A DNA stretch of 64,000 nt from Raillietiella orientalis (Eukaryota). Shown here piece by piece: positions 3,689 through 60,400 of this stretch. The stretch covers positions 310,001 through 374,000 of the forward strand of contig JAYWIR010000075.1 in the NCBI GenBank assembly GCA_036172245.1, written 5' to 3'. Within the stretch, counting starts at the first letter, position 1. Each line of letters opens with the position of its first letter. The notes under the pieces were generated by a model. It saw only the letters and a list, made by a program, of their open reading frames with translations, did no database searches and was not told the origin of the DNA. A program made the translations under genes and the position numbers.

Positions 3689-4474
3689 TATTCTTCAAGA
3701 TAGGGGGGGCACCATGGAAGGGGTTCGACCTATGAATCCAGAAAGGTTCGGAGTCCGTTCCTCTCACGTTTGGGGAGGGTAACTCGCACCTCCCACCCTG
3801 GTTGTCTCCGAAAGGGAACTCCGAAGGGAATCTCTTTCCTCATTCTCTCCGGAGGGACCCCCCGGGAGGAAGGTGATCCTCTCCATTTCATCTTCTCCGA
3901 AGGCAGCCCGGAAAGGATCCGCTAGCAGGAATTTCTTCTCCGGAGGGAACCGCAAGGGAACCGCTCCTGTTCACTCCTCTGAAGAGAACCCCGAAGGGAT
4001 GCTTCCGAAATTCAGAAGGGGCGCTGCAGCTTCCTGCAGGGGGATCGCTCTCGCTTGCTTCCTTGCACTCTGTGAAGAGGCGGCGACTCGGAGGGTCCCC
4101 ACCGCAACAGAGGGGGGTCCGCTCCTTTAAACAACTGGAGAGGTGCCTGTGAAGGTTTCTGCTCCATTTTGAAACCGGAAGGGGCCCCCCGGTGTGGAGG
4201 GTCCGCTCTCCGTTGTACGACCGGAGCGGAAACTCCCCGTCCTTGATTCCTGGAAGGACCCGAAGGTCGACTCCCATTGTTCCGGCCTTCGTCAAGGGCC
4301 TCCGACTTAAACGACCACCGGTGCCACGCCCGAATGTCTCGGCCAACCAGCGCCACTGCAGGAGAAACTCGGAATCCAGCAACGCAGCGGCGTCGGTTTC
4401 TGCCGGAGTATTCGAACCCGCGACGCATGGTACCATACGCGGAAGCCTTAACCACAAAGCCTCCAACGCGGGCT
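3689..4474 (-). mobile_element. tRNA-headed SINE-like chimeric repeat, copy A (head 4474-4381, GC-rich body 4380-3689)
   Basis: Closely matches 30432-31176 along its length. The minus-strand 5' end reads AGCCCGC...GGCTTTGTGGTTAAGG...GGGTTCGAATACT (A-box-like, and B-box-like with one mismatch to GGTTCGAATCC). Confidence 0.75.
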
Positions 4475-4551
4475 TGTGGTTAAGGCTTCCGCGTGTGGTT
4501 CCACGCGTCGCGGGTTCGAATACTCCGGCAGAAACTGACGCCACTGCGTCG
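4381..4551. repeat. ~80-bp-arm inverted repeat formed by two tRNA-like heads, head to head
   Basis: 4381-4461 is the reverse complement of 4471-4551 with a few substitutions and one indel; spacer about 9 nt. Confidence 0.95.
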
Positions 4552-6238: not shown

Positions 6239-8619
6239 TCATGACGAAGCTGATAATAGAAATTCCGATGTTTTTTTCTTTGATTTAACTGGGGATGCAG
6301 ATGATTCATCATTTGCAGGCAAGCCGTCTTTAATAACCACATAAATTAGGAGAAAAAACAGCAAGACTAAGGCACCTGTTACAATCTCCAATGAAGTTAG
6401 CAATTTTTGTAATTCGTCAACACTGTCTTTTTCAACGATGTGAGACAATTCATTTTCCAAATCACCGGTATCTTCATCTATCACTGATTGTTCGGTCAAA
6501 CTGCTAATCATTTCTTGTTGTTCAACAGCCTAACACATAAAAATGCTGCATTTACATAAATAAAAATAATGCAATTTACATCTGTAATTTCTTGTAGCAG
6601 GTGTTCTATTTTATTTTCTTTGAAAACTGGGGCCTTTAAGACATCTTGTAATGCACTTAACCCATGCTGGTAAGCTTTGACAATCTGAAAATATTTTACT
6701 ATATGTTTTGTATTAACTAATAAACCAACTTCCTGGTCTGATTGTGCCTGCTCTATTTTGTGTATGATGATTTCCAAATTATCATAAATCTGATATTGAT
6801 TTGGCAGCATGTTATCAAGGACGTGTTTCTTTCGCAACAACCGTTTTGCCTGAAAGATGATCACACATGAATATGCAGTTGGTAAAAACCAAACGTTTCA
6901 TTATTTTCGAATACTAATGAACACTTTCATTCTGTTACTCTGTAGTAGATACATGTGATAAGCAATAAATGATCTTTGAAGAAACTGTAAAACAAAACAA
7001 AACAGAAATGAAAAAAAATAAATAAATTAGCGATATCATAGAAGGAAACTAAAGTACAATTTAAATTTTTGAAATTCATTCATTGATTTACTTTCAAGAA
7101 GAGCAGATATATAAAGCATATATCATATTTTTAATAAGTAATTATATGCAAATGCATGTACTTTATAAAATCTGCTGCTCTGTGCTGTTGCATTCAATAA
7201 AAATCAAAGCAGATATGAATTGTTTTGGTTGAAAGATTTCATTATAAGATGAGAAATAGATGATATAAACTCTGGAAAGTAAAGAAAAATTGGAGAAACG
7301 CTTTGTTATTTCATATGTGACTTAGCAGTTATACAGTACTTCAGATTTAACCATTAGCAATTATTATTTGTTTCCCATATATCTGCTATTCATTACTTGC
7401 TATGAGAAATTAAAGAACTGGAAATTAATGCTCCTATAAACATGTGAATGCTAAACATAAAAAACTGTTCAACTACAACATGAAACTGGTTTGCCATACA
7501 GTTCTGCAGAATGCACAACCACATACACTTTACTGCAAACATAACTAAAATAAGCAAACTATTTACTCAAGAATTTATACTAATCAAAGTTATCAAAGCC
7601 ACTCTTGCACAAATGACACTCAACACAATTGTTTTAGATTTTTTACGAAAAGTATATGCGAAAAATCAAACAGATAAATTAATGTACAAACTTGCATGAA
7701 AGTGAAATACAATATAATTTCAAATATTCACCTCTTGTTTGTTCCCTGCTTGCAACTGCTCCTGAGCTTGTTTCATATACAGATGAATTTTCTTTTGGTG
7801 TTCAGCAATTTGATGTTCCACACGCTTCTTAACATTCTGCACTAACCAGCTTTTTCTATCAGTATCTGTAAGCATGCTTCTCGAGGCACTTATGTGGTCA
7901 GGAAACTTGACTAATAGACAATTGTCTGAGAAAAGGCGGAGCGATATTTGGTGATGCTGAGCAAGCCACTGCAAGGTCAACATGAAAGAAGATTCGTCTT
8001 CTGCAATTTCATGACATTCATCTCTTATTTGATGTACAGACATCACCTGTGGTAAACCTTTTCCTTGATGATATTTCAAAAGTGATCTCCCTATTTTCTA
8101 AAACATAAAACTTAAATGTTAACAGAGAATTAATGCTAATACCTCCAGCAATCCAACTGAAACATATCGAGTTCCTAACTCTTTTTTTCTACCAATAAGT
8201 TTCTGGATACCAAAAAAACTCCACCTGACTGGATTCCATACAAAATTTGTAAGGACCCAGTCTCGCCATCGCAAAATAGGAATACTGATATCGGACTCTT
8301 TTAAAAGATCTCCATTCCTGCAGCACAGACATCAGTTGCTCTTCTACTACAGTTTTTACTTTAGCATTATGGTAAGTACTTCCTCTAAGGCTTGTGGAAC
8401 CATAGTTTTTCTTTCAAATATCCTGTACAAATCTTCCAATGAAAAGCACAGACAATTCTCTCCTGTACTCCATGTCAGAATAAGCTCTTTCCAAAATTTG
8501 AACGTTTCTTTCATTGCTTCAGCATTCACATTAACATCACGAATAGGACCATACAACACACTCATTCTCAAATCATCATCCCAGTACTCTGGTAAATACT
8601 TTGATATACCATCTGTCAT
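6239..8619 (-). CDS. CHMP7: Charged multivesicular body protein 7 (ESCRT-II/III hybrid), spliced
   Basis: The N-terminus LPEYWDDDLRMSVLY...KFWKELI is typical of CHMP7, with a C-terminal Snf7 domain (AGNKQEAKRLLRKK...IEQAQSDQEIVKAYQHGLSAL...DLENEL). Phase-compatible GT-AG exons: 8619-8360, 8317-8143, 8097-7732, 6849-6730, 6684-6580, 6529-6239 (the last probably contains one more short intron). Confidence 0.9.
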
Positions 8620-23106: not shown

Positions 23107-26100
23107 TTATTTCTTTTTATGCCTTTTTTTGGGCTGTAGTCTGGGGCCTGGTTGTAAAGAATCTGTTTGTGGACTTTTCGTTATATTCTTTGTAACCATT
23201 TTACTTATATCGTAAAGATCTGCCTGACCTATTGCAGATCCCTGAGTACCTTTTCCTACATCCTTAGATCTTTTATCTTTTCGTTTTTTATATGTTGATC
23301 TTTGCCATTTAGGCAACCATCTTTCAGGGTCTGGATCTACAGAAGGATCATAATTTTTGGGTACTTTTTTTTTGTTTTTCTTTTTTTTTTTAATTTTGCT
23401 TTTCTCTTTAATCGCACCAGACCTTGGACTAGTCATAGTGTCTATCTTTCCTTTTCGTAACTGCTTCAATCCCTGCATCCAACTGCAGCCTTCCAGACTA
23501 TCTACATCAATATGGGAAGTACATTCAATAATTAATGGTAATCCGTGACTTAAGGCCTCTGCTTTCTGAGGGTCAAACTGGCACAAAGTAATAATGAGCT
23601 GCGCTAAAACTTTTGTATCAGATGGCATATGCTTCCTTAATTCCTGAAGACTCTGGGCAGCTAGTTGTGGATCACCACTGCTCAAATAATAATTAGCAGT
23701 GTAGCACCAAAATGATTTAAGATCCTCATCAGATGTGTGGTTTTCTAAATGCCAAGCCTGAGCTTTTTTAAGGAGATTATGCACAGCTTCTTTATTTTCT
23801 AACTGACTGTACAGACCAACTAGCATGGACAAAACAGCAGGCTTGAAGGTATATTTGCCCAAGTTTTCAAGAATGTTGCAAGCTTCTTGCAGCTTATTCT
23901 GGGATGACAAAAACATCTATGCAGTTTTCTTTTTGTGTGTGTACTCACCTCTTCCAGAAAAAACTGTACCAAAGCTAATTGCAATTCAAGAGATTCTTCT
24001 GAATTTAATTGCGAGCTATGTTTTTGAAGTAGAGAGTAGGCTTCCTCATGCTTATGCTCTTTAACTAACTGCAATGCCATTATAAGTGTAGCATCTTTAT
24101 GTGCTGCTGGGAAGTTCTGCCAAATTTGTTGACATTGTGTTTTACACTGATCTCCTTGACCAGATATATAAGATAAGAGACATTGATTGACAGCAATGGT
24201 TTGTCTCTGAATAGGCATCAACTTTTGATCAACAGTTTCTCCAGCAGCTTGCCTCATTCTTTTTTTGGAATCAAATAAACTTTGATCTCCATGCAACACT
24301 ACTACATTATTGTTTGCCACTGCTATCACAGCAACATCATCTGGAGATTGACGCAATATCTGATTGTAAATAGCCAATGATTCTTTCTCATGTCCTAACA
24401 GTTGTAAACAATAAGCTCTCTGAACCCTGAATATATCAAGTTATTACGTTCAATTTATTTATTTATACCTAATGGATGCTGTTTCATCCGCAATTTGATC
24501 TTCAGCCATATCTTCTTCAAGCATTGCACAACACATTGCCTCTGCTTCATCAAGTTCAATTAATGCTTGTTCCAGAAGACCTCTAGCTAAACTACAGCAG
24601 GCCTGATTGTAGCGAACTTCATAAATATTGCTATTCAATGTAAGATTACCTAATGAAGAGGGAGTCTGCAAAAAAACTGATTAAATTGCACAGTACTTTT
24701 TGTTATATGATTTTACATATTCCATGAAACCAAAGTTTAAAAATTACATTATTACTCCATTTATTATGTTAGTTTTTGCCACTATAATCGAAACAAGAAG
24801 AGGTAGATCAAACACAAGGAGAAAGAAACTTCAAATCAATTCATTGTTACAATTATCAACATTATTCTAGATTAGAGAAAAATGATTACTTTTGCATCCC
24901 ACAAAGAAGCTGCTAAAGCTGCAACTAAATTAGCTTCTCTTTCATCTCTCATATCATCATCACAATTACGAATAATATCTCGATAAGCATTGAAACACTC
25001 TTGATATCTGTTAAAATAAAATAACAGAATAAATAATGAATGCAGGAATATTACCTGCCAAGTCGAAACAAAATCTGACAATGTAGTTCTTTCATCCGTT
25101 TTTGCACAGAATTTGCTTCACTAACTGTGTTGAATGCAGCACCAGTATCAAATAATCTGTATTGGCTATATGCTTTTTCAAATGGCATAAGACTAACAAA
25201 ATTGAGAATTAATATCTCCAATTTGACAAGTGATCACACTATCAACTAAAACAATCACCCTGAACAACTCTCAGCATATGGTGGCTACTATTTAATTGGT
25301 GACTATGGTGGCTAATTATATTTTAAATCACAAGATCGATACTTCAAACATGCAACTCACTATCAATACCAAATAAAATCCTCTATAGTTATAACAAGAA
25401 CTTTATATGATGAAGTGTTTGTATCTACTTGTTGAAACAAGTATTTCTAGATTTTATTTTCAACCTGATACTAAAATGAAGTTTGCATGAATTTTAATTA
25501 ATCTCCATAACTTCGGATTTGGTTTCAAGTAATTTTTTTTGTAAACAAAGTTTATTCGATCTAAACTTATAAAAAGCTTAGGTTTTATTATGCCTTCAGG
25601 ATTTTTTTCTTCAAAATGCAATTATTCTCTATTGCCTTTATGACTGCATTTTTACCTTCCACCTATACTGACTGAAGGTTTTTAAAAATTACTAGAATCT
25701 TCACAGTTTATTTAAGAAAACTTCGCTGTGACTGCTGCAAAAACATTTGGGGATCTTTCATTCAGAACATTTGCAATCATGAACACATTAGAAAATGTTC
25801 AAAAAGTAAGCAGTGATGCAGTTTATTGCAATATATCCTGGTCTGCTGATATATCTTTTCAATGGAACTTTTATTTTTCCGAAAAGCCTACTCAAAAAGA
25901 AGCTGATTTCAACTAGTGATCGCCATTGCTTCTTTTTTCCTTCTTAATGCTTACATTTTGAAAATTTGAAACTCATTAATTTTACTTTAAACTTGATGCA
26001 AATTTTCCTTTCTTTTCTTTGGCTTCTCTTCTTTTTTTTTTTATTTTTTTTACAGTTTTTACACCAAATAACGATTCTTGTTGGTGTGGATGTTCACTAT

Positions 26101-30230: not shown

Positions 30231-30299
30231 TATGATGGAAGTCTCATCCCACACAACACACTGCCAAAAAGAGCGGCCCTCTACTCTCCTTCTTGATAT

Positions 30300-31176
30300 G
30301 CTCCGACTTAGCACCAGGACTAGTCAGTCAGCGTGCAAAAAGTGGCGATGGTTCGCTAAGTACCTCAAGTGCGGTCGCGTGCCTCGCGGCCCACGTGGCT
30401 CTGTTCCACGCCACCCGCGGAGGGTGCGTGTTATTCTTCAAGACAGGGGGCACCCCGGAAGGGGGTCCTCCCTATGAATCCAGAACGGCTCGGAGTCCGT
30501 TCCTCTCACGTTTGGGGAGGGTTACTCGCACCTCCCACCCTGGTTGTCTCCGAAAGGGAACTCCGAAGGGAATCTCTTTCCTCATTCTCTCCGGAGGCCC
30601 CCCCCCCCAGGAGGAGGGTGATCCTCTCCATTTCATCTTCTCCGGAAGGAACCTCAAGGTAACCTCTCCTGTTCACTCCTCTGAAGAGAATCCGAAGGGA
30701 TGCTTCCGAAATTCAGAAGGGGCGCTGCAGCTTCCTGCAGGGGGATCGCTCTCGCTTGCTTCCTTGCACTCTGTGAAGAGGCGACGACTCGGAGGGTCCC
30801 CCACTCAACAGGGGGGGGTTCACGCCTTTAAACAACTGGAGAGGTGCCTGTGAAGGTTTCTGCTCCATTTTGAAACCGGAAGGGTCCCCCCGGTGTGGAG
30901 GGTCCGCTCTCCGTTGTACGACCGGAGCGGAAACTCCCCACTGCTTGAGTCCTGGAAGGACCCGAAGGTCGACTCCCATTGTTCCGGCCTTCGTCAAGGG
31001 CCTCCGACTTGAACGACCACCGGTGCCACTCCCGAATGATTAGGTCAGCCAGCGCCATTGCAGGAGAAACCCGGAACCCAACGACGCAGCGGCGTCAGTT
31101 TCTGCCGGAGTATTCAAACCCGCGACACATGGTACCACACGCGGAAGCCTTAACCACAAAGCCTCAGAAGCGGGCT
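30300..31176 (-). mobile_element. tRNA-headed SINE-like chimeric repeat, copy B (longer body than copy A)
   Basis: 30432-31176 aligns to 3689-4474, with a ~44-nt deletion between TCTTCTCCG direct repeats. The B-box reads GGTTTGAA. GC-rich sequence continues left to ~30300. Confidence 0.75.
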
Positions 31177-32999: not shown

Positions 33000-34270
33000 T
33001 ACTAACTACTTAATTGCCAATACAGGTTACGATAATTACTAGATTAGGCTGAATGATTGAAAGGGGTATGAAGAGGAGGGACTCAAATGACTCACGTTCG
33101 ACTAATCGATAAATACTGAAATGTGCCCTTTCCCGCCTCTGCATGAGTATATCAGTGTTTGCCGGATAAATCATTTATTCTCATAGGAAGGATGATCAAC
33201 AAGATCGTCACTGGTGTTCGGTTTTCAGAAATACTCATGAGGACGTTGTCCATAGTGGCAGCAGCAAGAGGAAACAATGAGAACATCATGCTCTCTTCAC
33301 GCCTCATGAGAACGAGCATTGCTCCATCTCTCAGAAAGTCCTGAAGGATCTGTCATGTGGAAGCCATTCAGCCTCCACATCTCAAGAAAGCAAAACACAG
33401 GAGCATGACCTGATCTTTCTATTTTTTTTCTTCCAGTTTAGCAAGTCTCCTTGGAGAGTAGAGGAAAATCCTTCACTGTGGATACTCTCATACCCCGATT
33501 GCCAATACGCGAGTAATGAAGGCAGCAGTGATTTGACAGGGGCAACTGGTGATGGGAAGGACATTTTTTTTCACTCTTTTGACCGCTCACTCAGGCATTG
33601 GATGAGCCATCACTGCAATCGCATTCGGAAAGCAGTGGTAAACAAATTCTCTCATTGACGGGTAAAGACGGTGCGAAACAGTTGTTTATGGATGATCCTG
33701 CTAATTTTAGCTTCAGGATGCAAACATGGACCTATGTAGGCTTGTTTCCTGTCAATCCAGGATTCGACAGCATTCAAGCAGATCACTTGACACGGCTGAG
33801 ATGCACCTTCAGAATCAAGGCCTTTCTCACCTGAATCCTTGGTGGAGAGCAGTCTTGCAGAATCCTCCCCTGGGACCACCGAAGACATCGAAATCGAAAC
33901 GAGTGGAGTTTCGTGTGGAGTCCTAGCCCTCACGTACATTCGCGTTTGCGCGCAGCCTATTTGATCCAATGGGTGTGGAAACCCGGCGAAGCAGAAGCAC
34001 AAGTGATCGGAATTCTCAGGAACGAGAAAAATCACAGCTGTTTCGGAAATGCTCTCAAGAGTGCAACGGTCTTCGTTCAAGGAAACGAAAGCATTAAAGA
34101 CGGGGCGAATGCTGCTGGGACCTGCGATCTCTTTGGCAGAGCGCGATGCACTCCTTGCTTCCATAGAAACGTGCACTTTGCACAAAGACGAATTCAAATT
34201 CCATTCAGAGTGGAGTTGGAAACTCCATTGGGCGGAATGGGTACTTAGCTTGGAGCCATAAGCCAATAAT
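33000..34270 (-). mobile_element. Decayed Penelope-like RT
   Basis: SIRPV (~34105), LVS then FDV across a frameshift (~33895), GFSST (~33465), LNGF (~33365, NGYP-like), in the expected order. Confidence 0.55.
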
Positions 34271-35015
34271 TATTTCACTTTTGTTGAAACGCGGAGCATA
34301 AAGAGACCGCGGAAGCGGCCGCGAATTTCAGTTTGAAAGGTGGAAGGAGCAAGTGATGGCAACCTAGGTTGCGAATAGCTCTCCGTGGGGAAAGCATTCC
34401 ACTACGTGAATAGGGCAATGAAGCCTGGGAAAAGCGGCCCACGGAATGTGCTAGAAGCAAAGGAAATAACCTTCACCTTCAGGAAGACAATCCAAGAGGA
34501 CAACCATGTCGATTCCCGTGAGTCATCCAGACGGAACTGTCTTGCTTTCTGATAATCCAATGCTTGGGTTCGTCCCACAGGTTGAGGATTCTCGGTATTT
34601 CAGTCTGTCCACACGTTGCGAAAATTCGTAGGTTAGCAAGTGACATAGATTTCTGCGGGTGTTTGTGCGCGCGTGCGTGTGTACTAAATGCCTCTCGCAA
34701 AAAATAAAAAAAAAAATCTCACCACTGAGAACCTTAGAATTCATGAGTTGCATTCTTGCAACTCCTGTTAAGGATATTCTCCACGGCATTGGATGAGCCA
34801 TCATTGCAATCTCATTCGGGAAGCAGTGGTAAACAAATTCTGTCTTATTGATGGACAAAGGCGGCGCGAAACAGTTGTTTATGGATGATCCTGCTAATTT
34901 TAGCTTCAGGATGCAAACATGGACCTATGTAGGCTTGTTTCCTGTCAATCCTGGATCCGACAGCATTCAAGTAGATCACTTAAAACGGCTGAGATGCACC
35001 TTCAGAATCAAAGCC
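33594..35015. repeat. ~230-bp direct repeat pair (33594-33822 and 34785-35015)
   Basis: Near-identical sequence from GGCATTGGATGAGCCATCA to CAGAATCAA(G/A)GCC with scattered substitutions and a 2-nt indel. Confidence 0.95.
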
Positions 35016-42900: not shown

Positions 42901-45321
42901 AGCTCCTAAGCTCCAGAAAATTGTGAAACAGGATTTGAAGGTGGGGGGGCGGGGAGAAATGGTTATAAACTAGTTTTCCGTTAGAACGCAATATTAGTCT
43001 TCTCCATTGAGAACTTTCACAATGAGACAAACAAGCACATTGATTTATGTGATCTAATCCTTTCGCTTTCAGTTTCGCTACACGTAGTAATCCGATCACC
43101 GATTCACTCTGTATAATTTTTTAGAAATCTGCTGGTGTACATTGCGTTCGTACTGTTTGGGATGGCCACCCACCTTCCGTGGGACATGTTTGCGATGTCA
43201 AAAAAGGTAAGCCATGGTGATAACTGCGCTCGTTTTAAGGGAGCTCATAGCTCTGAAATTCCGCCGTGCGTTCGCTGAATTATATGAAAAGCCTGCGGTC
43301 GAAAATTTCAAGTTTCCAGGCTGATCTGTTCGGCCAGCACAGTCTCCGAGTTCTCGACACGCATTGACTAATTCTGAAAGATCGAATTCTTTTTCTGATT
43401 CAAAGGGTTCGATCATGCTGCAAGAGAACTTCTTGCAGCAGCCGCTTGTCGGCGGCTCCACCGAAAACCGAACGAAACACACACCGATCGTTCTTGGCTT
43501 TTACTCGATAACTTTTCCGTACGGTGCTCATCGAGAGGAACAACATAATCCCATATCTTAAACGCAACCCAAGAAAGCCAGGGATCAACCTTGAACTTTG
43601 GGGATCCAGGAAAGCACGGAATGCTGCTCAATTGACACTTATGAGAAAACACTGAAAGGAAGAATCTTTCGGTGGGATATAATCCATGCTGTCCATCAAC
43701 ACGCTCCTTGTTCCCAATTAAAACCAATATATGTGTGTGTGTATACGTACATACATCATTTCGATCTACATAATGCTGCAATCTACATAATCTGGTTTCT
43801 CATTAGGACATCTGCTGAAAGAGTTTCACTTTTCTAGTATTTTGTGGAATACAGGCTGTCGCAGGAATACATCGGCATGCAAACGGATTACAATGACAAA
43901 TTTCACTTTTTCATCGGGCTGGTGCTCTACTATCCCATTTTCTTACTGAACTGGATAGTAGTTTTCATCCCACTAAAGTAAACCCACGCTCATGTTTAAT
44001 TTCAATGCTGACGTGTTTGCAATTCCAAGAGGCACGCTGGCGAGGAGAATGCTCATTAGTGCCACCCTTATTATCTTTGCTTTTCTGGGGATGTTCGTAT
44101 TGTCTATGCTGAACACATCTAAGAGTAAGTTCGTCTGTGGTCCACGAGTCCATCTGCTTATTCTGATCTTTTCCAGTTCCTGCAGCATTTTTCTGGCTAA
44201 CTCTTGCATTGTGCTTCCTTCTAAATGGTAAGTTCACCGTGGACTGTATGTCGCTTTTTTCATCTACAGTATCATCCAGGTGCTAACGCAATTTTCCAGA
44301 GTTCTCTGTACGGTGTGGCGGCTAAACTTCCTGAGAAATACACAGGAGCTTCAGTCCTCGGAACTGTAAGAACACGGGATGTGTTTATTCTCCAGAATTG
44401 TTAATGCAGCAGTAGAGTCTATCTACAGCAGTGACTGCGGTCATAAAATTCCTGTCCATATACTTTTCCCCAAACATTCGGATTGCTGCCATGTACTACT
44501 TTATTCTTGCCATCTTCCTAGTGCTCCTGTGCACGGATATTCTCCTAGCTTTGCCTCTGAATGTATGCACTATTTTTGATTTTCGGGAAAAGGGACTGCA
44601 AGTGTCTTGCAGAAATTTTATTGCTACCATGCTTCCAATGAGCATCAGAAACGATGTTGCTGTTTCAAAGAAACTATTCCGTATTGGAGGATTCTCAAAC
44701 AAGCTTTCCCTCAAATGGCTAACGTATTCCTCATCTCGTTCGTCACGACTACTATGCTACCCGCAGTGTTAGCCAATATCCACAGCTCTGACGATAACTT
44801 CATAGTGTCTCCTAAATACTATTCTGTTGTTCTGGGCCAACTTACTTTCGGTCTGTGTTCCATTATCGGAAACTCCCTCGCTCAGTTTTTCTCCTGGGTA
44901 GGAATGCGCAGGATACGTCCATGTAATGATTATGTATTTTAGCCTGGACCTCGTTGGTTATGGATTCCTACTGTTCTGCGTTTCGTGTTTATTCCTTTTT
45001 TTTTGCTTTGCAACTACCATCCTACTGATGTGGAGCGGAAGATTCCGGTGTATATATCTAATGACTGGATTTATTGGACTGCTGGGTTGTTGTTTGGGCT
45101 TTCCAGTGGCTATTGCTCGTCACTTGCAATGATGTTTTGTCCAAGGTAACCAAAACATGCTTCAGATAAGAGATTTCCTCTGCAGAACAGTTGAGAAAAA
45201 ATACTCGAGCACGGCTGGATTGATGTCCGTTGCCAGTCTTGTTACAGGAGCAGTAGCAGGCGTGAATTTTTTCTTGGTCCTGAGCTACATCATCCAAAAA
45301 AGCTTCATGCTGATATATTAA
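36976..45321 (+). CDS. Equilibrative nucleoside transporter (SLC29 family); first exon uncertain
   Basis: Spliced protein KDR|NLLVYIAFVLFGMATHLPWDMF...YFVEYRL...ANAIFQSSLYGVAAKLPEKYTGA...LRFVFIPFFLLCNY...NDW...SSGYCSSLAMMFCPR. Exons: 36976-37036 (probable), 43125-43206, 43838-43977, 44030-44124, 44177-44227, 44280-44365, 44416-44562, 44613-44897, 44943-45145, 45186-45321; all GT-AG and in phase. Confidence 0.92.
37500..40200 (-). mobile_element. Decayed Penelope-like element inside the long ENT intron
   Basis: GSKMGIPLS (~38312-38286) matches RT G..MGSPLS. Upstream VKKDAEEAV (KADKG-like, ~39000) and KLRRLS (YGLPK position, ~38730). Confidence 0.6.
42484..42548. repeat. (TA)n microsatellite with inverted flanks
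   Basis: ACTTTTGACGACGATAAATGA-(TA)n-TCATTTATCGTCAAAAGT. Confidence 0.9.
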
Positions 45322-50678: not shown

Positions 50679-50857
50679 AAAATCAATATATATATTGAGG
50701 GTAGATTAAATAAGAGGCAAAACATAACTTATGAGCAGTTGTAATCGGATACTGATTTTGAAATTTTTATATTTTTAGTTATAAAACATGCATTCCAATT
50801 AAACGTTAAAAGATCATCAAAATTTAATTTGCCATGTACCTATTAATCAATCAAATT

Positions 50858-50890
<33 letters not shown>

Positions 50891-51046
50891 GCAAATTTGA
50901 TTTTATATTTCACATGACCATTTCACATTTAATTTAAATGCATGTTTTATAATTAAAAATGCAAAAATGCCAACATCAGTATCAATACAACTCATAAGCT
51001 ATATTGCCTCTTATTTAATCTACCCTCACTATTATGTATCGATTTT
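50679..51046. mobile_element. AT-rich foldback/MITE-like element with long inverted arms and central (TA)n
   Basis: TGAGGGTAGATTAAATAAGAGGCAA (from 50697) is the reverse complement of TTGCCTCTTATTTAATCTACCCTCA (to 51028). Pairing continues inward (TATAAAACATGCATT / AATGCATGTTTTATA; AATCAAATTTGC-(TA)n-GCAAATTTGATT). Confidence 0.85.
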
Positions 51047-54492: not shown

Positions 54493-57400
54493 CTAGATGA
54501 CACGGTTTGGGGGACGGTAAACTGAAAGATATGTTGAAATACATGGGAGCCTTACCTGTATTTCCACTGGGAAATGATCAGAAACTTTTAAGGCCTCAGC
54601 TCTTGTTAAGGATAAATCTTCTTCGAAGTTTATCGCTCTGCCTGAACCAGGAACGAGGCTTTGTTTCATCTCTTCTCCTATCAAAACGATCCTGAAATGT
54701 AGACAGAATTTGGAATGTTGCAATCCCCGTTCTTTTGCAGCATTGGCATCACGTGCTTGCAAATACATTTATTATGCACCCTCGAAATTGATAGAATGGT
54801 TTCATTTTAGAATTCCACCTCATCTCATTTTGGTACTTTAGTTACGTGCCTGTTGAGGAATTAAGAGATACTTTGATTATAAAGTTATGATCCTTTTCCT
54901 TAAGGAATACAACAAAGTAGAAGGGTCGGTAAATGGAACATCCATCTATAACGAGTTTTCCATCAAAATGGATTTTTCACTGTGGTCTAGGATTTTGTCA
55001 TTCTGCGATGTTTTCAACAGATTTCAAAACCGAGTGAAACCATCGATTTGTCACAGCAATCATCCTGGATTTCTCGATTCTCGGAGTCCCTCGAAAGTCA
55101 AAGAAAAGCACGCCAAACAGATAATTCTACCCTGTTGTTTTCCGTGACGTACAAACAAAAGCTTACTAAACGAACATTGTTCATGTATGTTTTTCTCACG
55201 TAGCAAGTGCATACTGAGGATGGGACTCCAAGGACATCGAGACATGTATTTGATCTGTAATTTCAGATAGCCGAGGACATTAAACTAAGCATAGCATGCG
55301 AAACGGAACCATCGTGACATGATTAAGATTTCGAATTCCTGGATGCAGTTTGTAAAGCAGATGGGATGCAAAGAGCCAAAAGATTTTCTATCAGCCTTTG
55401 AAAAACGATCCGGCATGGTTTTGATCAGGAAGCTACGTGCCCTTGAGCATTATGTCATAGAGCAGGGCTTCACATGGTACACATTTCTCCATTGACCGTC
55501 TGCAACGACGCACAGTTTGTAAGAAGAAATCCCTTAGCGACGGAAAGAACGTCAGGTCTCAGATCGTCTGCCTTTCAAATAAGAACTGGTTTCGGAGTGT
55601 TTCCTGACGACTGCCTTCTTGGTCAAGCCCTACTACAAGGCAGGGAACTGAAATGAGGTTGTTCAGTCTCGGATGCTGATGGCGATGTGGTCACGGCAAT
55701 AACATCGGGCATCATCCGTAGACAAAAACACATCACACGAAGAATTCCTCTTTCGAGATCTTTGGAGTTTAGGTGAATCGTCGAGGAAGCCCGCGTTGGC
55801 AGCCGTGTGGCTGCGGTCTCCCCTCCAAAACCTGGTACTAAACCTTGATGGCTTGAATACCAGGAAAGGATCCACGCTGGAGAAATGGGAGTCGTGGATT
55901 TCGAGTCCCCCTTCCCCGCAAGATGGAGCTGGTTAGTCTGTCTTCGGATGCAGTGGAAACTTCAAATTGGACCCCCCCGATGAATGGCCGGGATTGGAAG
56001 TGGACTCTCCGGTATCCTTCCGGGAATCAGAGTTAAGGAGTCGGTTCCCTTTTAGGGCTCCCCTCCAGTTATGAAAATGGCGCCGAACCGTGTAGCTGGA
56101 CGATACTCCCTTCCATGGTCGTCTCTGCAGAATGTCAGAAACGCGCTGCTCCCTTCGGTGAGCGTCCCTCCGATATTCTCTTCAGAGGAGCACCAACAAG
56201 GAGCGGTTCCCTTGCAGGTTCCCTCAGAAGAAGAAATTTCAGGAGCAGATCCTTTCCGGGTTGCCTTCGAAAAAGAAACAATCGAACTCCTCCTCCCTCC
56301 AAGAGGTCTCTCCGGAGAGCATGAGGAAGAGGTTCCTTCCCGAGCGTAAGAAGAAGGGACTCCTTCCTCCAGAGATTTCCTGGACTCATAGGGTGGTCCC
56401 CTCCCGGGATAACCCCTAACTTGAAGGTGTATCATCATCGAAGGAAGCCTCGACGACTACACAGGAGAAACTTCGAGAAAATGTGATGCCGGGTAGAGGT
56501 GGTGGACAGCTCAACCACGGTTGAGCACATGTAGTGTGTAAAATAATTGCATAATGCGTAAACTGTTGCTGGTTGCTGTTCAGATATCTCTGCATTTGTG
56601 GTTCGCTCTTCAGCACATCAAAGTATCAGCACTTAACGGAAGCTGAACGACGGAAATTCTCGAGGGCCGGGAAGGAAGAAAGAAAGAAAAAGAGGTAAAC
56701 ACTGACCTGTCATACGTGCAATCAGTATCGCTCACGGTAGTATCCTCGTCTTCAGGGATGGCCCAAAGGTAAGAAACATTAACATAAAAGTTGACTGCAT
56801 TCCTCCTTCTCTTACTGGCGTATTGGCAGTCGAAGTTGAAGTCTCCTACCATGATTACATCCTGAAAAATTTTGGGAAAGGGAAAAGGAACAGCCGTAGC
56901 GAGATTGGATTTATGAACGGACGTGTGTCTGAACGGGTTGCAGCGAAAGGGCATCATCGTGCCGGCATTCTTTTCCCCTTGTCGTGAGCATATTGCACCG
57001 CGTGCCCCGTGTCACTCTTTCCTCTAGTTCTTCAGACGTGCAGAATTCGTGGAGAAACGAGCGAATAGTTTATCATGGGAAAACGAGTTAATCGCCGTTG
57101 CTCGTCGCAGCTGTCATTCGGTAAGAGTGAATCCCCCCAGAAAAATCGCGGAATGGTCTGCAGGTCAGTCGGCATCGAATTAAACCTTCATCGAAAGATC
57201 TGAACGCACAAAATTCGTTTTTCTGGTGAAGAATTCCCACGAATTTATTTCATCCGCGTCATGGATGATGTCTTGAAAAGGAAAAAGTAGCCACATCCAG
57301 GTATCACTTTTTGAGCCATCGCATCCTAATCCAGGAAAACCCCTGAAGACAGACCACCACACAAAAAGCAGCGGGTATGTGAGTAACGGCGTAAACACAC

Positions 57401-60400
57401 AAAGCATATGTGAAACCACGGGCGTGCTTAGCAATCACGAGCACATCGGTCCACCAAGTCTCCTCAAAGCCTCTTCTCCTTCGAAATGTCTTATCAAAAA
57501 TCTTTTCAATACATCCGGCTCCACCTTTTGCTATGAAACAGAACTTGCCAAGTTCGTTTCACGTGTGCTCAGGAATTGTGACTGAAACTATAAGTACCGC
57601 TATGGTGCCACTTTTGGCTTGCCCAAGTACAAAGGTGGCACCACAGCTGTACTTATAGCTTCAGTCACAGGATTCCTGAACACGCGTGGAATCAACGAAG
57701 ATAAAACTGGTTTTGATGGCACAATCCTCATCAAATGGATTCTCTCATCTCTACAGTTTTGATTTCATCCCGTAGTGCAGCCCGCGGGCAGTTCACCAGG
57801 TGGCAAATTAGGGTACTTGAACATTGAAATATGGTGAAGAGATGAGGAAATGGTTTGAGACCTCGGGCTCTAGAATTTGCTAGAAACGAAGTCTCATCGG
57901 AGGATTAAAAAGAAGTCTAAATGGTGAAAAGAAAAATTATTAGAGAATTATTCATAAAACCAAAACATGCTAATGGTTTTGTACTCTTATATCGGAATTT
58001 TAATTCAGACATTTGCATACAATTTCATTCAAATTCTTTTCATCCCATCAAATGAGCAGGATGAGACAACTTTCCTACATTTTACGCACGGGACATTTGC
58101 GTTCCTTTGAACGTGTGCAAGATGGGTTCAATACCCTGAACGATCAAAATCTCGAAAATCAAAATGAAAAAACACATAATTACATATATAATAAGTAAGC
58201 ATTAAGTGAATACATAGACGTCGAATTATAAACATGTAAATTTATTAAACGATCAAAATCCCGAAAGCAGAATCCGTCATTTACTGAGAAAGCTCCATTA
58301 AGTTTTCATTTTTCATCATTCGATATTCATATGTTCATTTAATATATATTCATATTATATATATAATGTACATGTATATGTATTTATTCCTATACATCAA
58401 AGGCATTCATTTATATTGAGGAAAACTTTGATATAAACGTTAACAATATGTTACTACATATTATTAATTATATTATGTTAATAGATTCACAGATATGTAT
58501 GTTAAAATAAATTTGCGGACTGATCTTTATATATAATAATGTAATCTATATATTTATTTCTGTATCATCATAATTGTATGGACATATATCATATAGATTA
58601 ATCTGCAAATTTATTGTAACATACATGTCTATGAATATTTGTTAACACTCATATTAATTATTACTTATATATCATTATTATGTATGTATGTATGTATATA
58701 CATGCATAATAATTATGTGTATATATATGTGCAAAATAATTATATCTATCTATTTGTATAACCTTTATGATATATATGAATCTATATATAAATATACATA
58801 GCAACATGTATAAAAATAGACATTAACATGCATTGCTCCTCGGCCTTTTGGCTAAACATTTCAACTGGCATAAATCACGAATTTTTTTTTTTTACGTGGC
58901 CGTTCGGGATTTCGACATGCAAGATTTTGATCGGTACCGGCGCAAGATATGTTGCCGAGTTTCCCCGGATGTCATGGTTACGTTTCCTTCAGCAGCCCTG
59001 AACAAGGCGTCTCCATCACGTAAGCGCTGCTTGTTTAGCTCTCCACCTACGGATCCGAGCACTCTACGCAGCCGAATGTTTTGCAGGATCTGTTTTTCCA
59101 GAGTCTGCTGCGCAAACACTTCGGGATCATCGGTACGCAGGAGCTGCTGGAGCTCAAGCGTCTTCCTGGACAGCCTGCTCTTCGAGGAAAACTTTTCTTT
59201 TTCAGACGGACGCTTCCGTTTATTACGTCCGAGCGCTTGAGCTCCCCGCCACGCTTTTTTGGATCCGTCGGCCTACGTTGCATCAATCCGATGGTCACTC
59301 CTCTCATTAAATCGTTCTTTTGCTGGGCAATTCCCAGACGCCGCACCAGTTTGATGACGATGAGTGTTTCAAATCAAAATATTCGAGACGACTGCAGGCG
59401 GGCACCGGAAAAAATCCTTTGGAAAAGCAGCTCCTTCTCCTAACAAGCAGGACAAGACTCGACTTGGATGGATTCGAGTACGTCCAGGACTTCGTGTGAC
59501 TCTCAAGCGCACTGTCGATGCAGCCTCCTACCACTCGGTCTGCGGTTTTAAGAATGAGCGGAGCTTCTACGCGCATTTTCACTCGCTTCCGTCCCAAGAC
59601 GGTTCCCTCGCTCCTTGAAAGAAGTATTCATTTGTGGACTGGGTGGATCCTCCCGTTTTCAGGGCAGCAAGGGAGCAGAGGAGGTTTCCTCAAGCATCTG
59701 CATCCAACGCTGCGCGCAGTTGTACACACCCGGTCTACTTGGAAATGTGAACCACAGCTGATCGGTACCGATTATTGGATGCAATTGAATTGTTGTGTTG
59801 TTGTTTTTCGCTTTCATTCCTGCTTCTGGAACCATTCTGGATCTTGGAATTCCGTGGTCTTCCATAGTGCATCGGAGCTTCTGCTGTGTCTTTGGCAAAA
59901 CTTGCTCGCGTGGTGGGGTCTGCAGGAAGGAAGACTGGAGCAAGTGTCCCATATCGACGAGCACAAGAGATTCATCCCATTCATCTTTTCCTAAAGCTTC
60001 TCTCCTGATCTTCTGCCAGTTTTCCGTGTGCTCCAGCTTCTCCTAGTCCTTGCTTATTTACTCTGAACGGTAGCGCGGGTCCTTCAGATAAACACTGATC
60101 CCCAGCACGAAAACGAAACACGTCCAGAGAAGGGGAGCAACGCGAGATGAAGAGTGCAGAAGAGTTTTTAGGCTTCCGAAACGACCATTGTTCGGAACGA
60201 TGGTCGATCAACTCTCGAAGATTCCCATTACAAGACATGACAAACCGCGTGCAAGACAGGCGTTGAAGTTCCGTCCCTAGAAAGATGGATGAGTCCCTTG
60301 GGAATCTGAACTTACTTGCACGTTAGAATGCGTTTTGTAACTCTCGATCGCGTCGGGCAGCTTGTTGACTTCTGGAACTGCCGTGGACGGTGACGTGTGG

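Follow-up and report, generated by a model that had tools for sequence, protein, structure and literature searches.

A long interspersed repeat of Raillietiella orientalis, probably a SINE-like family with a Pol III-type internal promoter

Among non-autonomous elements, the tRNA-derived SINEs are those with which the repeat described here can best be compared. SINEBase lists 175 families with lengths of 75-662 nt (without the tail), and the commonest architecture, accounting for 41% of the 175 families, combines a tRNA-derived head with a body whose origin is unknown (PMC3531059). The definition used there includes a head that is identical to a tRNA, 5S rRNA or 7SL RNA at 60% or more of the positions over at least 60 nt (PMC3531059). 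The presence of boxes A and B is regarded there as an indication, and not as proof (PMC3531059). Insects supply only 23 of 234 SINEBase families, according to the abstract of a further account (PMC8010984).

Penelope-like elements represent a second system of reference. Their insertions are characterized by heavy 5' truncation and by partial tandems (pseudo-LTRs, in which a hammerhead ribozyme is located); the 5' end often bears a 5'-truncated copy in inverted orientation, and complex tandem or inverted structures with short 'tail' extensions are likewise frequent (PMC8557442).

The repeat was studied in a stretch of 64,000 nt of contig JAYWIR010000075.1 (positions 310,001 to 374,000, forward strand), which is referred to below as the window. 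An earlier note had interpreted two copies of this repeat as a chimera in which a tRNA-like Pol III head is joined, in antisense, to the decayed core of a Penelope reverse transcriptase (RT), and as a possible source of anti-Penelope RNA. The analysis presented here favors a different interpretation, to which a probability of about 0.6 is assigned: the repeat would be a non-autonomous, SINE-like retroposon that is lineage-specific and, at about 640-790 nt, unusually long, with a Pol III-type internal promoter and with the head strand as its sense strand.

A discrete repeat with fixed ends at three independent places

Copies A and B (Table 1) can be aligned from TATTCTTCAAGA to CGCGGGCT, while the flanks on both sides are unrelated (MAFFT). 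Their identity is 92.5% (687 of 743 aligned bases), or 87% over the 791 columns of the blastn alignment, in which gaps are counted (E = 0). They differ by 56 substitutions, among which there are 32 transitions and 11 changes of the CpG type. The 43 nt absent from B are edged in the gap by a 9-nt direct repeat, TCTTCTCCG, and as this segment is kept in copy C, it is B that carries a deletion. At 30595-30612, B shows 11 C on the plus strand where A has six, which reveals a length-variable homopolymer within the element.

The third copy, C, was first picked up by a sensitive blastn search with A, which returned a match of 189 nt in the opposite orientation (56161-56344, 76% identity, E = 3e-29) and, 374 nt upstream of it, a weak match to the first 24 bases of A. 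This copy lies 25 kb beyond B, its flanks differ, and its identity is 63% to A and 60% to B. When A and C were compared by parts, each against 300 dinucleotide shuffles, z values of 7.2, 28.4 and 10.1 were obtained for the head, the middle and the tail, respectively. The three copies have in common the start base (AGCCCGC), the order of the parts and the CTTGAAG end. A search of the window with a three-copy profile (nhmmer) recovered only A, B and C, together with the head fragment D (model positions 14-99, E = 4e-19), and no body-only pieces were found in the window by this search.

At three independent places, the repeat proves to be a discrete unit whose ends are fixed, with promoter-like boxes in the right position and with no T4 run on the head strand of A and B. 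Since all three full copies keep head and body within independent flanks, head and body travel together. The 5' end is also complete in the three copies, which is expected if a promoter defines that end. Two proposals of the earlier note have held: that A and B are one repeat with a common head and body, borne out by MAFFT, blastn and the unrelated flanks, and that this unit has been amplified as a whole, which is supported by C, an independently diverged copy in the opposite orientation with the same ends and the same order of parts. The family consists of at least two subfamilies, a young A/B type and an old C type.

The first account, limited to two near-identical copies, would also have suited a segmental duplication of unique sequence in place of a mobile family. 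The chance of this is close to nil: no alignment exists between the flanks of A and those of B, and C, at 60-63% identity, has the same ends in the opposite orientation 25 kb further on. Copy C and the unrelated flanks rule this candidate out.

With lengths of 786, 745 and 640 nt at three separate places, the repeat is interspersed, shorter than 1 kb and not arranged in tandem, as in the SINEBase definition. Tandem structure within the repeat is restricted to a pair of short internal arrays, each with about two copies. The body also contains degenerate internal repeats, namely TCTTCTCCGGAGGGAAC, which appears three times at a spacing of 43-48 nt, and CCGAAGGGA-type units.

Table 1. Position and nature of the copies and parts of the repeat in the 64-kb window
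Feature	Position in window	Strand	Description	Basis
Copy A	3689-4474	minus (= sense)	full length, 786 nt, 59% G+C	alignment, ends, composition
Head of copy A	4380-4474	minus	box-A-like and box-B-like motifs; not recognised as tRNA	
Copy B	30432-31176	minus	745 nt, both ends complete; lacks 43 internal nt that A and C have	
Copy C	55788-56427	plus	full length, 640 nt; an older and diverged member of a related subfamily; start AGCCCGCGTTGG, end CTTGAAG	
Fragment D	about 4475-4551	plus	inverted head-only piece, element positions about 15-99, adjoining the 5' end of A	

Several other features of the window were recorded. A CHMP7-like gene with Snf7 and CHMP7 winged-helix matches lies on the minus strand at about 6.5-8.1 kb (6511-8097). 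It is followed on the same strand by SRP72, with large exons, at 23.1-24.4 kb (23110-24440); the C-terminal frame of this gene shows at best 48% identity to any protein in a collection of 5.8 billion proteins, and its best named matches are from leafhoppers, planthoppers, crickets, termites and cockroaches. Taken by themselves, these matches point to an arthropod, probably an insect, to which no annotated genome is close. An equilibrative nucleoside transporter is encoded on the plus strand at 44.6-45.1 kb (44580-45146). The G+C content, in 2-kb bins, passes from 29-37% (6-30 kb) to 38-50% (30-64 kb), and copy B is located at this boundary (about 30000), inside a G+C-rich stretch (30236-30431). 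Two more repeats were noticed. One is a direct repeat of about 230 nt with 93% identity (33594-33822 and 34785-35015, 1.19 kb apart), which is unrelated to the SINE-like family. The other is an inverted repeat (50748-50817 and 50914-50983) with 70-nt arms that are 83% complementary and 96 nt apart, which may be a MITE-like element or a hairpin.

Promoter-like motifs, T-runs and folding of the head strand

In tRNA genes, box A is found at position 8 and box B at position 52. The motifs were scored here against the usual consensus of the two boxes. On the minus strand of copy A, element positions 13-23 (4452-4462) form a box-A-like motif, AGGCTTTGTGG, and element positions 57-67 (4408-4418) a box-B-like one, GGTTCGAATAC. 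The first of these motifs appears at element position 13 in A, B and C, with two mismatches in each, and the second appears at position 57 with one mismatch in A and two in B. The distance from the start of box A to the start of box B is 44 nt in A and B, the same spacing as in tRNA genes.

Taken separately, neither motif is commoner in the window than expected by chance: box B with up to one mismatch occurs 10 times versus 7.0 expected, and box A with up to two mismatches 139 times versus 190 expected. When the two strands of the window are searched for the pair, with up to two mismatches in each box and with box B 30-60 nt after box A, four sites are found, and the 5' ends of A, B and C account for three of them. 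Elsewhere in the window, the paired arrangement fits 21 of 121,310 start points, all of which belong to one site. This site (57801-57862) consists of a box-A-like motif followed 51 nt on by the box-B-like GGTTTGAGACC (one mismatch), and no tRNA was called there.

The search for a tRNA gave negative results. ARAGORN predicted no tRNA in the window, and lowering its thresholds to 80% brought out none in the four heads; the calls that it made on them at 70% were meaningless. No Rfam family matched the window at gathering thresholds, and the heads of A and C, searched alone, gave no match at E <= 10 to Rfam models including those of tRNA, 5S and SRP. In a structure of the head drawn by hand, GCTT-TGTGGTTA-AGGC makes a hairpin like that of a D-arm and TTCGAAT resembles a T-loop, but the 3' strands of the T-stem and of the acceptor stem are not complementary. 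The head is tRNA-like at the level of promoter motifs only, so that the 'tRNA-like head' of the first account stands for the box A- and box B-like motifs, but not for a tRNA that ARAGORN or Rfam would recognise. A tRNA gene or pseudogene was also considered and rejected, as neither program recognised a cloverleaf.

The distribution of T-runs depends on the strand. Runs of four or more T are absent from the head strand of A (786 nt; 3.66 expected, with 4 of 1000 dinucleotide shuffles as low) and of B (2.75 expected, 29 of 1000 shuffles as low), a depletion to be read with caution, since A and B are not independent and the tests of runs numbered 12. On its head strand, A has ten TTT runs and no TTTT; the opposite strand has one T4, at about 4166. 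In A and B, no such depletion is seen for runs of C, of G or of A, the last being the T-runs of the other strand. Past the 3' end, the flank of A has a T4 at 5 nt and that of B a T5 at about 90 nt. Copy C has one T4 on its sense strand and an unexplained deficit of G-runs (0 versus 3.3 expected, 11 of 1000 shuffles). Judged from the sequence, a Pol III unit that is read from its head across all 786 nt should show such a pattern of T-runs.

The RNA structure proposed for this strand has received less support. The earlier note had referred to several UUCG-capped stems, and the two that it named do exist (4257-4268 and 3989-3998). However, TTCG-loop hairpins of at least 3 bp on the head strand number only two in A (21 of 500 shuffles have as many), one in B (126 of 500) and one in C (74 of 500), which is barely above chance, and they are not conserved: the hairpin of C is at a non-homologous position, B already lacks the second one of A, and C shows neither a hairpin nor a compensatory change at the two positions of A. 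Folding of the whole element yielded z values of -1.84 for the head strand and -2.31 for the opposite strand (20 shuffles each), so that no strand preference exists. A reading of the element as a structured RNA was discarded, because the folding is as predicted by composition, the UUCG stems are not conserved and compensatory changes are absent.

From the sequence, we infer Pol III transcription, retroposition and the existence of a partner element. Pol III would bind within the repeat, at the box-A-like motif (position 13) and the box-B-like motif (position 57), start at or near base 1 of the element, read through the G+C-rich body, which offers no T4, and stop at the first T-run of the downstream flank. 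The transcript would then be copied to new sites by the RT of a partner element that recognises the conserved 3' end.

Ends, body and relation to Penelope-like elements

Copies A and B end in GAAGAATA (in longer form, CTTGAAGAATA), and C ends in GAAGG (in longer form, CTTGAAGG). The conserved terminal stretch, which comprises the last 50-100 nt of the repeat, reads ...CTGGATTCATAGG...CTTGAAGAATA. No poly(A), A-rich or simple-repeat tail is present in A, B or C. A scripted search for target-site duplications was negative for B and for A, whether D was included or not; its only result for C was a weak candidate, ATCGTCGA / ATCATCGA, which 30 of 500 shuffles match as well. Neither a terminal inverted repeat within the element nor LTR-like TG..CA ends were found. 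The simple-repeat tail and the marks of retroposition by a partner LINE that SINEBase includes among its criteria were not observed. The reading frames of the window (all 104 of at least 90 aa, and 150 of the 215 of 62-89 aa, covering 1-47 kb) contain no LINE, RT or GIY-YIG domain with which a partner could be compared.

The lack of a target-site duplication and of a simple-repeat tail in A and B would also be in agreement with some other class of interspersed non-autonomous repeat (e.g., a Pol II-transcribed retroposon or an unclassified element), in which the box motifs of the 5' end would be incidental. The same can be said of the failure of ARAGORN and Rfam to recognise the head as a tRNA, of a length beyond the SINEBase range, and of the status of boxes A and B as only an indication in that database (PMC3531059). 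This explanation, the main alternative, is possible although doubtful, considering that box A is at position 13 in all three copies, including C with its 60-63% identity, that the paired boxes are almost confined to these 5' ends (three of the four sites in the window), that T4 is lacking on the head strand only, and that all three copies are 5'-complete and have no terminal inverted repeats or LTR-like ends.

As for the body, the claim that it is an antisense, decayed Penelope RT core has not been sustained. The peptide strings on which it was based are indeed present in plus-strand frames. They are scattered over different frames and copies (PYESR in frame 3 of B, with the related YESR in frame 1 of A; GVRSSHV in frame 2 of A and frame 1 of B; the remaining strings in frame 3 of A), have few residues in common with the RT motifs and lack statistical support, and the position claimed for the catalytic YVDD reads RRNSE. 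Each plus-strand frame of A contains 3-5 stop codons, and no coding signal was detected in any frame of the element. Pfam searches with the six frames of A and the three plus-strand frames of B, carried out with profiles that are not specific for Penelope, identified no RVT_1, GIY-YIG or other credible family at E <= 1 in these nine translations; the sole matches were to DUF1953 (E = 0.25-0.35).

The frame with most of the claimed motifs, with its stops written as X, was also compared by phmmer with 1,835,955,588 representative proteins. Four matches were obtained at E <= 0.001, none of them with an RT domain. All four proteins contain internal repeats and have Pfam domains of bacterial type (beta-helix, NosD, cutinase, RHS, bactofilin), and they align only to query residues about 63-124 and through these repeats of their own; they are chance matches inflated by repetition. 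As far as these search tools (Pfam and phmmer) reach, the body gives no hit to a Penelope RT, which is the outcome that the earlier note itself had named as contrary to its proposal. On sequence grounds, the body does not seem to derive from Penelope RT; a very faint relationship is formally possible, and nothing points to one. A Pol III head joined to an antisense RT core is highly improbable, and, since the body has no similarity to RT, the idea of an anti-Penelope transcript is without basis here.

A further question is whether a Penelope-like element could have mobilised the repeat in sense orientation, for which no RT homology is needed. Such mobilisation would explain the inverted fragment D at the 5' end of A and the missing tail and target-site duplications (no poly(A) tail is present, and neither A nor B has a duplication), as insertions of these elements are often complex, tandem or inverted, with short 'tail' extensions (PMC8557442). 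The details do not fit well. The hallmark inverted copy is 5'-truncated and keeps its 3' end (PMC8557442), whereas D is a piece of the head, from element positions about 15-99 only, and does not keep the 3' end. No pseudo-LTR or tandem copies occur in A, B and C, and all three are full length, in contrast to the pseudo-LTRs and heavy 5' truncation of Penelope-like insertions. At E <= 10, no hammerhead ribozyme was detected around A, nor a hammerhead or any other Rfam family around C, and the window frames scanned contain no RT or GIY-YIG domain, as mentioned above. For these reasons, there is only a slim chance that the repeat has been spread in this way.

Fragment D adjoins A head to head, so that both form a 76-nt inverted repeat that is 93% complementary, with 16 nt between the arms (window 4382-4549). 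The identity of D is 94% to the head of B and 93% to that of A, which does not discriminate its origin. At the joint there is a microhomology of 4-5 nt (GGCT / AGCC), in which the last four bases of A in antisense (GGCT) are element positions 15-18 of D. This junction may have been generated by a cDNA end that folded back by microhomology, was copied for about 80 nt and then joined the chromosome; it is just as possible that there were two separate events and that a deletion came after them.

In the 5' inversions that LINE-1 undergoes by twin priming, the inverted and the direct parts are different segments of the RNA. The A/D junction resembles them in having an inverted segment at a retroposon-like 5' end and microhomology at the joint, and differs from them in that D duplicates a segment of the head already carried by A. 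Because of this duplication, a fold-back of the cDNA or two separate events fits better than twin priming. The A/D inverted repeat accounts for the sub-threshold Rfam matches of the microRNA-precursor type at 4389-4543 (mir-B6, 42.7 bits versus a gathering score of 89). If transcribed, the A/D hairpin could give a hairpin RNA; it is otherwise a small curiosity about how the 5' ends of retroposed copies are resolved.

The fold-back of the repeat's own 5' end, together with a length greater than that of the SINEBase families and the lack of a tail and of target-site duplications, could mean that the partner is not a classical LINE. In full, this reading would be a family driven by Pol III with a new kind of head, not traceable to tRNA, 5S or 7SL, and with a partner other than a classical LINE, possibly Penelope-like, the body not being derived from RT. 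We consider this unlikely, and the preferred explanation is still a long SINE-like retroposon with a Pol III-type internal promoter.

Significance and comparison with known elements

Searches with parts of the element did not reveal relatives elsewhere. A 20-nt pattern from the head matched three loci in metagenomes, and since each of them has only the 20-mer inside unrelated DNA, these are chance matches. The same 20-nt pattern found nothing in prokaryote genome contigs, and an 18-nt head pattern found nothing in viral contigs. A protein search with the 155-aa reading frame of the head strand gave no match at E <= 0.001 among 77 candidates. Four strings of 18-20 nt from the element were not found in the full text of the literature, and no description of a SINE family linked to Penelope appeared in the accessible parts of the literature searched. 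The family is probably undescribed. Its comparison with the SINEBase families covered length and definition, and its body may match known SINE central domains or LINE-derived tails.

The repeat represents a further SINE-like family of an arthropod, lineage-specific and of unusual length, which carries little weight beyond annotation, and it could be used as a repeat-masking entry and as a phylogenetic marker. As a SINE RNA antisense to Penelope RT is not supported, no new principle of defense or regulation follows from it.

Compared with Penelope-like elements and their derivatives (retrozymes and elements that form pseudo-LTRs), the repeat is similar in being non-coding, interspersed and present in an invertebrate, and in having one copy with an inverted partial copy at its 5' end. 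It differs from them in that similarity to RT or GIY-YIG, a hammerhead ribozyme, pseudo-LTRs, tandem copies and 5' truncation are all absent, and in that its inverted piece is the 5' head and not a 5'-truncated copy. With respect to tRNA-derived SINEs, the differences are a head that does not score as a tRNA, the lack of a simple-repeat or A-rich tail, the absence of a target-site duplication in the two young copies, and a length of 786 nt, as compared with the 75-662 nt of the SINEBase families (PMC3531059). Like these SINEs, the repeat is short (less than 1 kb), dispersed and non-coding, and it has no terminator of its own, the T-runs being located in the flank.
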